A stretch of DNA of 64,000 bases, taken from the NCBI GenBank assembly GCA_030603365.1, contig JAUVXV010000001.1:64001-128000 (forward strand). Direction: 5' to 3'. This DNA comes from Candidatus Heimdallarchaeota archaeon (lineage in GTDB: Archaea > Asgardarchaeota > Heimdallarchaeia > Heimdallarchaeales > Heimdallarchaeaceae). The position numbers were made by a program, and so were the translations under genes. Shown here one piece after another: positions 1,101-17,206 of this stretch. A model generated the notes under the pieces. The model was given only the letters and a program-made list of their open reading frames with translations, made no database searches and had not been told where the DNA came from. Position 1 is the first letter of the stretch; each line of letters starts with the position of its first letter.

Positions 1101-1742
1101 TTACTGTTTCTTAGCTTCGAGTATGGCTTTTACTCTCTTTAATCTAGAAAAAGTTTCACGCTCTTGTTCTTCAAGAGTACTTGCAATGAAGTTTGCAGTT
1201 GCTCTAAGTTTTGGTATTAATATGTAGTTCAGAGCATTAACTCTTCTTTTAGTTTTATTAATCTCAGATGCAAGTTTTTCGAGTAACGTCATTTTTTCTG
1301 CAATGATCATTAATGTTTTCAGAGATTTTCTAAAATAGACTATTGCTCGATCTAATTGTGCACTAGAACTAGTTAAACCGTAAAAAATTTCTTCTTCCTT
1401 TTGGGTTTCCTCTACCACAAACTTTGGTGATTTAACTCCCATAATACTTACAGAGTGAGTTTTTATTTCAAGTACTGAAGGTGCATATTGGGCTAAATCG
1501 CGTATCTTATCAGGGCCAAGAGCCATCTCTCCCTTTGCCAAGGATTGATATGCAATTTTCAGCTCTTTTTCCACTTGCATTCTTGCCTCACGAACTTCAT
1601 CTTTGATGGCATACAATTCAATAACAAGACAATCCATTTTTTCTTTAAGCAGATCATGACCTTTTTGAGCTAGTCGAATCCTAGCTCTGGTATTTAGGAG
1701 TTCCATTCTTGTAGCATTAACAACATTAGAATCAAAGGACAT
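1101..1742 (-). CDS. atpD: A/V-type ATP synthase subunit D
   Basis: TRMELL...LAQKGHDLLKEK and KTKRRVNALNYILIP...LEEQERETFSRLKRVK motifs. Confidence 0.95.
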   Translation of the reverse strand: MSFDSNVVNATRMELLNTRARIRLAQKGHDLLKEKMDCLVIELYAIKDEVREARMQVEKELKIAYQSLAKGEMALGPDKIRDLAQYAPSVLEIKTHSVSIMGVKSPKFVVEETQKEEEIFYGLTSSSAQLDRAIVYFRKSLKTLMIIAEKMTLLEKLASEINKTKRRVNALNYILIPKLRATANFIASTLEEQERETFSRLKRVKAILEAKKQ

Positions 1743-1931
1743 TGATTCAGTTGTAAGTAAAGTTATTAAAAGTTTTATTATACAATTATAATAATTGTTA
1801 ACTCAACTAAGATTGGTTACATTTTTGGGTAAGATATTCTGAGGAGGGTGGTTTTACAATCTGTAATTTCAGTTTTATGATATCTTATAACATATTATTT
1901 ATATGCGTTTATTTTATTAAACAAAATCGAA

Positions 1932-2618
1932 ATGAAAAGTGGGAAGATTTCATTTAAATTGGGGTTTTTATTAATAATAGCTCTAGTTTTTTCTCTATTC
2001 TTTATTAATTTATTTTGGTCAATCATTCCTATTTTCCAATATCGGAAAAATGCTATAATTTTAATTATAGGTGATTATGGTCCTTTTAACGATTCTAATT
2101 ATGATGATGATTTTCTGTCTGAAAAATACAGGGAATATTGGGGAGTAAGAGCTGAAGAACTCAAGAAATTCACTAATTGGGAAGTATATTATTGTTATGA
2201 AAAGACATTTAATTTTCAATTAAGTTATTTTAAAAATCTTCTAGTTATTATTGAAGGTCATGGAAGTGTATCAAATTACTATAACAGTCATTATATCAAA
2301 ATTAATGAGCAAAAAAGGATCTATGCTAGTGAATTTAAAATTCAATGCAATAATCTTACTCTTGTTATTGATTCTTGCTTTAGTTATAATTGGTATTCTG
2401 ATTTTAGTCATAAAAATCTAAATTATTTATTCACAAGTGATTTAAGTAACAATGTTTCATGGAGTCGTTATCAATATCTCCCAGAACCATATGACAATTT
2501 GATAATCCAGAGATACAACCGTTTCTTCCTAGATGCTTTTCTTAAGGATTATTCATATCAGAAAGCAAATGAAACAGCTTGGATTAATATGACTCAGTTT
2601 AATCTTATGAATTATTAA
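1932..2618 (+). CDS. Membrane-anchored caspase/clan CD-like cysteine peptidase
   Basis: N-terminal hydrophobic helix; IIEGHGS and VIDSCFS His-Gly / Asp-Ser-Cys dyad motifs. Confidence 0.65.
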   Translation: MKSGKISFKLGFLLIIALVFSLFFINLFWSIIPIFQYRKNAIILIIGDYGPFNDSNYDDDFLSEKYREYWGVRAEELKKFTNWEVYYCYEKTFNFQLSYFKNLLVIIEGHGSVSNYYNSHYIKINEQKRIYASEFKIQCNNLTLVIDSCFSYNWYSDFSHKNLNYLFTSDLSNNVSWSRYQYLPEPYDNLIIQRYNRFFLDAFLKDYSYQKANETAWINMTQFNLMNY

Positions 2619-2760
2619 CAAAAAAGTTGTCCTCTCTCAAGAGAGATTATTTGAAGAATCATCAAGAATACCAGAATACAAGACCAATCAGTAACATCAA
2701 CCCCAATCAATGGAGAAGAAGTTAACCATGTGATCCATACTTTCTCTAAATAGTACCTAT

Positions 2761-16100: not shown

Positions 16101-16982
16101 CCTGAAAACATGCTCAAACTCTTTGCCATCCCTTACGAATTTTTAAGTGCCCTTACACGTCTTAAAGATTGGAAATATCCTGAACTATCTTTTATTACTC
16201 TAATAAGTGGTGCAGGAAATAGGCAAGCTGCGCTTGTTAACCAACGTTTAGTATCAATGTATGGAAATATACTATATGACAATCAACATAAAATAACAAA
16301 AAAACTAGATAAAACTATCATTGATAACTTGCTTCAAGCAATATCAATTGTTAAGAATCACTATACTGATTACAAGCAAATTAGCTTGAAGGGTGGTCTT
16401 AGAGGAGATGTATTGAGAAAAGAAATCTATTCAAAGAAAATTGAAGATTCTTTTGAAATTGTTGCAGCTTTAGAACATTTAGTAAATTTTGATTACCTAT
16501 ACAAATCACAGCTAACAATAGGAGAACAAATAGAGGATTTAGGTGGAAAGAATCATTTAATTCTCAGAGAACCTCTTAAATTCAAAAGTTTTGTAGTCTA
16601 TTGTCAAAATATTGGTATTCTACGTAGGAATATAAAGGGAACTTACAACTATAAAATAATCTCTGAAAATAAAGTAAATGCTCCATTTTCTCTGAGTAAC
16701 CAACAAACAACAATAGGACACATATTCAATTGCAGAATCCTTACTCCAGCAGGAATAATAGATAAAAATGGGAATTTTACTAATGAAATACAAAAAACAC
16801 TTGTATTTGATGCTTTACAAGATTCTTCTAGAAAGTTATCAAAAGCTCTTAAATTCGCTGAATTGGTAAGAAATGGTGAAAATACTGCGGATGCTCATAG
16901 AAAAATCTACAGAGACGATGATTATTTTATTTCAAAAAACAATTCAATTGAGAAAATTATGCTTTGGACTAATTTAGTCTGA
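10176..16982 (+). CDS. Giant (2268 aa) membrane protein: extracellular beta domains, ~5 TM helices, wHTH-like segment, large cytoplasmic region
   Basis: Uninterrupted ORF; signal peptide; hydrophobic helices ~aa 560-755; possible QDG...IDTK nuclease motif ~aa 1128-1150. Confidence 0.8.
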   Translation: MKKCRIGISVILLFTSLILLNYTSSLTHSDHFEQNNPPFFSFPDIYIDYNSTYYKQQISCNLQLELHEFNCLTVLFTTSGDKTNNEGIRIVFTFGEIEVSFLIERLFQDHLGHNLTQFFSYPESFSGEMDVLITVEAQTSLWYESGSIRIFSYSNVERIEPAIVTEYGSSFPVVPNWLRFMGSSSSSEIRTVTTVFNNSENFDNVNLTLSFQANDFTAYKQHFELYVNDQLRSTREFRENQLTTESFMLAVDSGINYLTIDFVVEICIGEIQFSKINLSGKGIDFEDFLPENTYTCFKWERNEFDHTFDLSPLKPIVSYSEQILEMEMDYGYHSAVATSINYEINIGEKSLDSGEIIADGQAPSPLTISVKSPLIHSDDALVFRIQGIAEEPGIFYLLNSSYVSIEPLPELQEQGSLERVLVENESYSTPSSEPLILIFKDYCEVTPDYLHCNISLSFSLLNEFGSAVRQIDVLMKVDLLTVIDTQISYEKQVNINEQQIFYSNLYEVTVILSIYGDGFAVILNDLKYKFSEYLNDTSSPNPFDIPKYQDSNPLSPVKSTILYIEYGCLLLFFVIIFSQGLLRRKEKGRTVQENEEEERELTRFKRIVRFPKKWWLKAKESFFRVWLLPTSICYLGLKAETLGRIAEEFVTIANSYNLNLIHPDLGKWGFYSFIICVLVSSFVTLSALFLSLTSTFYKDLFLVSQLLGIVIFIIYIPSSILLLLYLSSNGYMVEIFKVVVLLCLFLSIIVFLKYLRKTENEQRKEIVKFFFKNKESEITDTTSNLTVNRTVGEDLSQEQYNDYKQKLLNYIIYKITPEIQVSANRFAERFHISLELAHNLLIAISNDHSGLGEYFIEEQIYKRSSTNEMSSLYLDIRSQKKHGELISKYNKNNVNSEKTPHNNVDNENQTPKKIPISSSFDDFYYYNKRLSTLNWLTTPILTDYFRYKLKIRTSKLDFKKYANVFFNNRGDVKIDDVDDYMDFFLHFSNSLTRNLSYSKYKEFFQVLGLKEEWISVVDLIKKHKLDDKFAFQIARYYLKIYELKMKDTNILKGECSFAEVIYSIFKYLWLANLYLENVKNIADGWKKWENIRYTFRTIFGVIELPFLGNIKAVPIINTSSKNDNRIYQDGIFCFNSSSSDKPPFLTIDTKQLALTYNAINLRLKDEKSLESFYNTRSGTDLITPSSLVSFKDRSSSMMSPSHLFNTVCELKSQNIGQLFIFGTLGDIPVYIDNKKVDFLNLSYQLYSGNESYKEIKERIENKIFPHIHHLMDEHGIFQKIKQVPSDAESTVYRTVNDFKRMWLSLDLLSMAFDHAMIKSIGVNLENNFLNTQIFANYQEIGERSTINRPARLRNKVPILPNFYPEVDVRIIQKVLESEKLISPETIVDFGFYTSHSFESITNIQLIVYGLSKHKKKELRFLTLTDLMKKYALIERNLPKNEQNRKLLLLNYETDSNLSEIHKCKIGNERFVIIIENKDSINYTQKIEPISNLLVYDENQSDFVFSNTNTIISPKSFWNPVFHKNKYYLTLRGEDLVPHTKVLRFSGREILPGWIDLSKGILPCWNYEKEQNNIPSETIIKHHRKTMFEFLLTRYLPIIEAQTKIVDDKIKYEAAIAHYPVDIAISKLKALKEYIIGAYKDTKLSKEQISELEHNKEKTRVIYQLLYEIDSLPFTSTSEFDVDILLSKISETIQYYDDLYRYSPNLELFVNYFDKTEKIPVQYRNKVIKDSNNVPYPKPLQVTHYFTTASKTSRRYSQNLLKIYTNQDVKRNKYGKTHLAGYIADNNFYKTNENGTKLYRVNGRKYVPNQLIHNPLDSIQLILFRYRLSMRDANEFYSKYNLGEGDILSLVTTRRNKEDQTHIKELSMKTFDIINQHAKQTDHILSNGIRTVYNDMLTLYSTLDLSLQKVIQSTNIKLAEEIWKFLSEKQYSRKSLQFDFAENSIMMLKKNKLLKGLLSSDMLNIIPISKHLQPNNPENMLKLFAIPYEFLSALTRLKDWKYPELSFITLISGAGNRQAALVNQRLVSMYGNILYDNQHKITKKLDKTIIDNLLQAISIVKNHYTDYKQISLKGGLRGDVLRKEIYSKKIEDSFEIVAALEHLVNFDYLYKSQLTIGEQIEDLGGKNHLILREPLKFKSFVVYCQNIGILRRNIKGTYNYKIISENKVNAPFSLSNQQTTIGHIFNCRILTPAGIIDKNGNFTNEIQKTLVFDALQDSSRKLSKALKFAELVRNGENTADAHRKIYRDDDYFISKNNSIEKIMLWTNLV

Positions 16983-17086
16983 TTATTGAATCTTTTTTTC
17001 GGTTTTATTCTCAAAATCTATCTTTATTATAATGAGTTCAATGGTTTTACCCTCTCTATTGCATAATTATGTCACTTTATGATATG

Positions 17087-17206
17087 TCAACACATCATTT
17101 TCTCTTTAAGGAGATCATGACCCTTCTGTGCTAAACGGATTTTAGCTCTAGTGGTTAGTAGTTCCATCCTTGTTGCACTAATAGTTCCAAATTCAGGAGT
17201 TGCCAT
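17087..17206 (-). pseudogene. atpD: Truncated 5' fragment of atpD (39 aa)
   Basis: MATPEFGTISATRMELLTTRAKIRLAQKGHDLLKEKMMC* aligns with first 36 aa of AtpD at 1742. Confidence 0.9.

Follow-up and report, generated by a model that had tools for sequence, protein, structure and literature searches.

Why does the atpD gene of a Heimdallarchaeaceae archaeon have two 5' ends about 15.5 kb apart, and how did the second one get there? The locus lies in the window analyzed here, a stretch of 64,000 nucleotides of Candidatus Heimdallarchaeota DNA, within a 701-kb contig; the host family includes Ca. Heimdallarchaeum aukensis and endolithica. An earlier note, made from the letters of the window, had proposed that a 15.5-kb island is inserted into atpD and restores the gene, and had compared it with integrative elements. 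The insertion is confirmed by empty sites in relatives and by the host-like flanks of the island. The comparison is probably with the wrong class, as the evidence points to an endonuclease-linked island family that uses many different genes as targets: the window island is one member of a multi-target family of integrase-free islands that replace gene ends and are linked to membrane-anchored endonucleases.

Both atpD ends lie where the earlier note had placed them. The working gene occupies 1742-1101 of the minus strand (213 aa; PF01813 of Pfam, E 1e-54) and is an in-frame fusion. Its host-derived 3' part (1101-1625) groups in a tree with the closest relatives G023, G016, and G020 (100/98; G000 denotes the genome of the window, other G numbers related genomes, and L numbers loci). 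Its island-borne 5' end (1626-1742, MSFD...KEKMDCL) has an N-terminus present in no empty allele and is most similar, though narrowly so, to other island-borne starts (85%). The second 5' end is an orphan of 37 codons (17096-17206, minus strand, MATPEF...KEKM) whose frame continues to a stop at 17087, giving a 39-aa fragment (17206-17087, ending KEKMMC) next to a csl4-like core gene (17392-17994, plus strand). Together, the two ends form the longest direct repeat of the region, 86 nt with 80% identity, separated by 15,461 nt. From ATRMELL to KEKM, 25 of 27 residues are identical, and 12 of the 23 codons with a synonymous choice differ (proportion of synonymous differences, pS, 0.75, synonymous sites being saturated); the longest shared run is AGATCATGACC, as had been reported along with the near-identity in protein and the divergence at wobble positions. 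A putative TATA-like box, TTTTAA, lies 24-29 nt upstream of the start at 1742, within an island-borne stretch that includes an upstream A-rich element (1766-1776, minus strand). The native start has TATTTAA at equal spacing (17230-17236, minus strand), conserved in G023 and stranded with the orphan. A motif similar to the putative island box is found upstream of all four island-type atpD starts.

Which of the two ends is native is answered by the relatives, among which about 30 alleles are empty. The csl4 gene adjoins an unbroken atpD in 17 loci of the genus and in 14 metagenome loci, nearly all starting with MATPEF, and the 14 close atpD loci from metagenome contigs are all empty sites. Because of this arrangement, the MATPEF fragment is recognized as the host's own start, and the working start, together with its TATA-like box, arrived with the island, in agreement with the earlier note. 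The orphan is 89% identical to that of the nearest empty relative, G023 (97% in protein), versus 80% between the two window copies. On the other hand, the description of the island-borne end as specially recoded does not hold: native alleles of the genus have a mean identity of 81% over about the same stretch and differ in 47% of synonymous codons, and because they differ equally from one another, the "recoding" corresponds to the ordinary divergence of a functional allele. In the cell, expression of atpD would presumably depend on the putative island promoter. A second A/V-ATPase operon with its own D subunit is present on contig C13 of the same genome, so the atpD served by the island need not be essential.

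The junctions give a first indication of how the island entered. It had been stated that identity at the breakpoint is only CATTTT; this hexamer is present (1635-1640 / 17096-17101), but it belongs to a junction core in which 25 of 27 nt match (1635-1661 / 17096-17122). Similarly, 1635 had been taken as the limit of the island; island-derived sequence extends 6-9 nt further, to about 1626. Since the native DAL codons are found in neither window copy, the right boundary is placed near 1626, with 6-9 bases replaced. The resulting patch (1626-1634, minus strand) reads D-C-L, an Ala to Cys change. This DCL is present in the three restored island-borne copies (3/3), whereas uninterrupted alleles read DAL in 31 cases, DSL in one, and DCL in one. 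The single native-start DCL allele, from G022, matches the remnant expected from loop-out between the repeats, and a search of the metagenome contigs with a DNA pattern for the DCL allele gave no match. Tn916-style coupling sequences were also considered and are unneeded, because loop-out between the repeats explains scar alleles. The empty relatives themselves cannot be loop-out products, because the DAL codons are missing from both window copies. At the other side, the noncoding left end of the island (16983-17095) shows no similarity above shuffles to the island ends of G001 or to the native continuation of the gene, and its interpretation as an eroded atpD continuation was rejected (p 0.22).

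Could the arrangement result from misassembly, or from an old duplication whose content was inherited vertically? The data come from metagenome assembly, and one further occupied site, a third restored atpD with subtilase and TFB-like pieces on contig C10 of G010, is probably misbinned, because its atpD body groups with another clade. Nevertheless, the locus lies inside the 701-kb contig, the closest relatives are empty, and both the break after KEKM and the DCL patch recur in an independent genome, G001, which makes this explanation extremely improbable; both refutations that the earlier note had foreseen, misassembly and vertical inheritance, fail on these grounds. The survey for split atpD genes that it had suggested gave G001 and the G010 contig as occupied. 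In G001, a small island that contains another truncated start follows the native fragment. A different contig of this genome has a restored atpD, preceded by the start of a giant gene, a subtilase, and a homolog of a 139-aa gene of the window island. Both island flanks resemble the host, in each of two separate host clades. Insertion appears to have happened independently in G000 and G001, because loop-out cannot restore DAL and each orphan resembles its own host clade. The G001 copy that retains DAL was interrupted again, and no DCL copy is interrupted. The small island itself (L061:336-1639, G001 C10) measures 1.3 kb and carries a 255-aa orphan gene and an island-type putative promoter; its atpD start keeps the native DAL, has a 2-nt deletion just before it, and is itself interrupted.

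The same arrangement is found at other housekeeping genes, and in each case the duplicated end differs between the copies: the 3' ends of ppdK in the window genome (105 nt, 75% identity), aspS (114 nt, 76%), and RLI (237 nt, 78%), and the 5' end of hydantoinase B (351 nt, 82%). Split genes are present for aspS in G004, G007, G001, G020, and G022, for RLI in G010, G009, G012, and G018, for ppdK in G000, G016 (with two stacked orphans), and G002, and for hydantoinase B in G041 and G042. The second family island of G000, that in ppdK, extends over C8:83923-90273 joined to C1:1-3430 (L065, L066), the two contigs overlapping by 124 identical bases. Each sibling junction is located at a conserved motif (before GxGxGIER, before VEHD, before CGE[HQ]GG, and at HHAD), and the restored copies show a nonsynonymous patch at the junction: NGAP to NGSV, NGSC, or NGAC in aspS, (M/F)PA to MGC in RLI, LGICGEQ to CSVCGEH in the G000 ppdK, and HHADVGG to HHADVGPIHG in hydantoinase B. 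The islands also share a giant gene, which in the window encodes a membrane protein of 2268 aa (10176-16982, plus strand), antisense to atpD and with its stop 113 nt from the left junction. The giant genes at aspS, RLI, and ppdK likewise run antisense to their targets, and at all four genes the stop lies close to the junction that faces the native 5' part; the giant gene at hydantoinase B has the reverse orientation. In addition, the patches of atpD, RLI, aspS, and ppdK often introduce a Cys or a TGT triplet, and those of atpD and RLI both read C-L-V-(V/I)-E. Uninterrupted RLI alleles with the MGC patch are found in G000 (C1:209509, L250) and G013 (C21, L248 and L283) and are probably scars of lost islands.

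The 25/27 junction match and the fixed orientation would also be expected of an SXT-like integrative element, with the 27-nt stretch as core of its attachment (att) site and a site-specific recombinase lost, acting in trans, or too divergent for recognition. SXT/R391 elements restore prfC in the same way (PMC7251087), and a whole-genome search found one tyrosine recombinase (PF00589, contig C11 only) and five resolvase-family genes (PF00239, on other contigs only). However, profile searches of the island proteins with Pfam, NCBIfam, PADLOC, and PHROGs detected no integrase or transposase, as the earlier note had anticipated, although a very divergent enzyme would escape them, and no recombinase is present in the sibling islands examined. 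Moreover, the five targets are unrelated and share no core, the 6-9 missing native bases do not fit a conservative crossover, and no island-end sequence is conserved. The last 470 residues of the giant protein were evaluated as a tyrosine recombinase, but the faint motifs are not conserved in four homologs. On this evidence, an SXT-like origin is quite improbable. Tn7-like ends were rejected too: the left end of the island resembles a Tn7-type end, and the triplet TGT is seen again at several junctions, but an inverted counterpart of that end was not found and the island ends are not conserved.

The giant protein of the window island has a signal peptide, an ectodomain of about 530 aa, four to five membrane helices up to about residue 760, and a swappable tail. 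Homologs of the first 760 residues, in proteins of 600-2500 residues, occur in 28 of the 30 family genomes and nowhere else in the order, and the giant is under purifying selection (ratio of nonsynonymous to synonymous divergence, dN/dS, about 0.2). Beyond about residue 900, the tails belong to unrelated types that mostly track the target (65% at atpD, 93% at aspS, 68% at RLI, and 67-78% next to glmS). The tail of the G016 ppdK island is a LAGLIDADG_2 endonuclease (E 1.8e-19, above the curated Pfam cut-off), and two LAGLIDADG-like motifs, weakly supported by Pfam, are present in the glmS-adjacent type. Most other tail types contain PD-(D/E)XK motifs, versus at most 0.3 expected per shuffled protein. 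The G000 ppdK giant (1872 aa) has its motif at residue 1172, and profile alignment brings the D...E-x-K motifs of this tail, the RLI tail, and a third tail type into register (E ~2e-4). In the window giant, the motif reads G-x-D...S-x-K (residues 1178-1191, 13707-13748, plus strand; fold predicted from the motif); in its tail type, the G, D, and K are invariant in 10 homologs, and the intervening Glu is present in 8/10 members. The synonymous divergence (dS) of the tail between G000 and G001 is 1.05, and that of csl4 is 1.49. Nuclease tails are established for the island family, and for the window copy the motif suggests one. Other searches with the tail were silent: protein databases returned only the protein itself and one 90-aa fragment, and no match was found in viral contigs, in the two Heimdallarchaeum genomes, or, among 400 genomes of the phylum, beyond the host family. 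The AlphaFold model of the last 470 residues (predicted local distance difference test, pLDDT, 49) has no match in the PDB or Atlas. Stand-alone homologs of the last domain of the tail (428 and 433 aa) are encoded in G000 near subtilase modules (C1:693735-695021 and C1:345000-346301).

Taken with the junctions, these tails make it on balance probable that the island is a homing-type element that would need no integrase, with cutting, repair, and DNA transfer inferred from comparison of sequences. Homing endonucleases target conserved, functionally critical sites (PMC2988022). When island-bearing DNA meets an empty chromosome, the tail nuclease would cut the uninterrupted atpD near KEKM/DAL. 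Repair of the broken host ends on the island-bearing copy would then place a copy of the island between the two flanks, which would both be retained at the cost of a few bases. With its target split and the junction altered, the carrier would be safe from its own nuclease, and atpD would remain functional through the spare gene start; loss of the island by loop-out between the imperfect repeats would leave scar alleles.

The same observations could be explained without any nuclease, by displacement of the gene end: foreign DNA would be taken in through homology on one side and joined illegitimately on the other. In this case, the giant protein would be cargo, a polymorphic toxin or defense receptor whose tail is aimed at competitors or invaders. 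A conserved membrane front with swappable tails, a protease, and a small partner gene are features of conflict systems, islands without a giant gene exist, and the catalytic residue of the window giant is atypical. However, this explanation does not account for the reuse of the same junction in separate clades, for the nonsynonymous patch at an otherwise nearly invariant residue, for the fixed orientation of the giant gene toward the junction, or for the LAGLIDADG tail; enzymes of the LAGLIDADG family recognize long specific sites and are not generally toxic. Moreover, one-sided homologous integration normally deletes target DNA and produces no duplicated gene end, whereas here the gene end is duplicated. 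We therefore regard displacement as unlikely.

Several observations weigh against the homing interpretation. Homing would have to repair across flanks of about 80% identity, which would be an inefficient process. The two atpD-type giants have Ser in place of the catalytic Glu, and the predicted structure of the motif region is poor and matches no nuclease (pLDDT 48, best VIA Z 5.3), too poor to count against a nuclease fold. The shuffle test overstates significance, because the PD-(D/E)XK pattern was written after the motifs had been seen. Common descent may account for the tracking of the target by the tails, and two unrelated tails occur at the ppdK site; contig C126, with the G001 tail, was assigned to the atpD island by inference only. 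Gene-end islands lacking a giant gene exist (the small G001 atpD island and the G020 aspS island), and conversely no gene-end duplication is seen at many giant loci. Finally, a subfamily of about 900 aa shares the membrane front but has a RING-H2 finger as its tail (PF13639, E 6e-9 and 5e-8) and not a nuclease (L150:8269-10989 in G010 C4, L151:9342-12059 in G013 C12, and L154:4858-7548 in G009 C45). These are membrane-anchored RING proteins that resemble eukaryotic receptor-type ubiquitin ligases, and some of their loci lie near tRNA-Cys with direct repeats.

The homing interpretation can be extended, speculatively, to the entire giant module. The surface protein, the protease, and a swappable site-specific endonuclease might act as one natural gene-drive unit in Heimdallarchaeaceae, the membrane module coupling cell contact or DNA transfer to the cutting of the partner's empty allele, and the exchange of the tail and the spare gene end retargeting the unit to a new conserved gene. 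We consider this extension doubtful.

Among known systems, the closest in working are the mobile endonuclease open reading frames (ORFs) of fungal mitochondria. These bring a foreign carboxy terminus into a gene and displace the native one, in atp6 of Allomyces macrogynus and in atp6, atp9, cox2, and nad3 of Glomus, and their mobility was shown to be endonuclease-dependent (PMC3630166). Here likewise, a foreign gene end is fused in frame to give a hybrid gene, and the native end is pushed aside and remains closer to that of empty relatives. The two ends of the fungal genes differ at 20-35% of bases and encode nearly identical protein, similar to those of the island. The fungal cases have an endonuclease gene alongside, to which would correspond, in the window island, the predicted PD-(D/E)XK-like motif with Ser for Glu and, in a sibling, the LAGLIDADG_2 tail. 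ATP synthase genes are among the targets in both, and with atp6 and atp9 as precedent (PMC3630166), such a target is not as unusual as the earlier note had considered it. Unlike the small mitochondrial elements, the island measures 15.5 kb, carries cargo, resides in an archaeal chromosome, and replaces a 5' end together with a promoter-like box; its putative nuclease, recognized from sequence, forms the tail of a giant membrane protein, a tail that switches between LAGLIDADG and PD-(D/E)XK types within the family. On these counts, the island falls outside the fungal class as defined.

Other systems share fewer features with the island. The free-standing homing endonucleases of T4-like phages (PMC2988022) also lie outside introns, target critical codons, and place different nuclease classes at the same gene, but they generally have no duplicated gene end and no membrane module. 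SXT/R391 elements insert in the 5' end of a housekeeping gene, prfC, and restore it as a hybrid protein (PMC7251087), but they depend on a 17-bp att site, a tyrosine integrase, and genes for conjugation; profile searches of the island proteins found neither of the latter two, and at the 25/27 junction core of the island 6-9 native bases are replaced. The aloposons of Ca. Heimdallarchaeum (PMC8813620) occupy the same host family and have a giant gene beside the insertion site; however, they contain tandem genes of 3,000-6,000 aa, target tRNAs, and have an upstream four-gene block with a ParA/MinD-like ATPase, whereas the island has one 2268-aa gene, targets atpD, and encodes no such ATPase among its proteins. 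No tRNA is present in positions 1-20000, and no Rfam family was detected in the island. Restriction-modification insertions with long target duplications (PMC2853133) are similarly nuclease-linked, lie between long repeats, and have no other mobility gene, but their target repeats are near-identical and they carry a methyltransferase; in this case, the foreign allele is 80% identical, and no methyltransferase match above chance level was found among the island proteins. A literature search that included papers on mobile elements and few subscription journals found no report of such islands in Asgard archaea.

Besides the giant gene, the window island carries several others, all on the plus strand except one. 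The recurrent partners of the giant gene are a subtilase (S8) protease (8074-9255; PF00082, E 1e-16) and a small membrane-anchored protein associated with it (9331-10008), both found in sibling islands. Two TFB-like reading frames of 187 and 285 aa (6239-7768; PRK00423, E 4e-7) are related to pieces of the G010 C10 and ppdK islands. The exception in strand is the 139-aa protein (2761-3180, minus strand), which has a weak match to inactive restriction endonucleases (PF22722, E 0.0045) and a 58% homolog in L062, beside the atpD start in the G001 island. A cargo module (3548-6264) consists of a PD-(D/E)XK-like protein (PF08011, E 0.005), a Ser/Thr kinase (PF00069, E 2e-40), and a 395-aa conserved hypothetical protein that matches Atlas clusters of bacterial hypothetical proteins with a score of 0.97; the module may be an undescribed defense system. 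A further cargo protein of 228 aa (1932-2618) has no function assigned by profile searches. Outside the island, a gene for a proline-rich membrane protein (1-928) lies downstream of atpD on the same strand and is conserved beside it across the genus.

Giant genes are also present at other positions in the family. Those with LAGLIDADG-like tails in L156, L162, L163, and L172 (G008, G009, G012, and G013) end directly at the stop of glmS, whose C-termini vary to an unusual degree from genome to genome; no orphan gene end was found at these islands. Another PD-(D/E)XK tail type (L158, L142, L178, L165, and L167) lies between non-tRNA direct repeats of 67-144 nt that are 87-100% identical and sometimes stacked. 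Also, giant genes end just upstream of rpoA1 (L160, G023 C170), an aldo-keto reductase gene (L157, G006 C83), and elp3 (L168, G044 C27), where no duplicated start was detected; these three genes are possible further island targets.

For phylogenomics, the consequence is a warning, as the ends of markers such as atpD, aspS, and RLI are chimeric in these genomes. If the homing interpretation is correct, the family would supply a set of new endonucleases whose cut sites are readable from the junctions, and therefore the idea is directly testable in vitro. It would also imply frequent contact between chromosomes of different species in the lineage. Moreover, homing into conserved housekeeping genes would give the closest archaeal relatives of eukaryotes an integrase-free way of moving cargo of several genes, a route so far described mainly for small elements of fungal mitochondria and phages.

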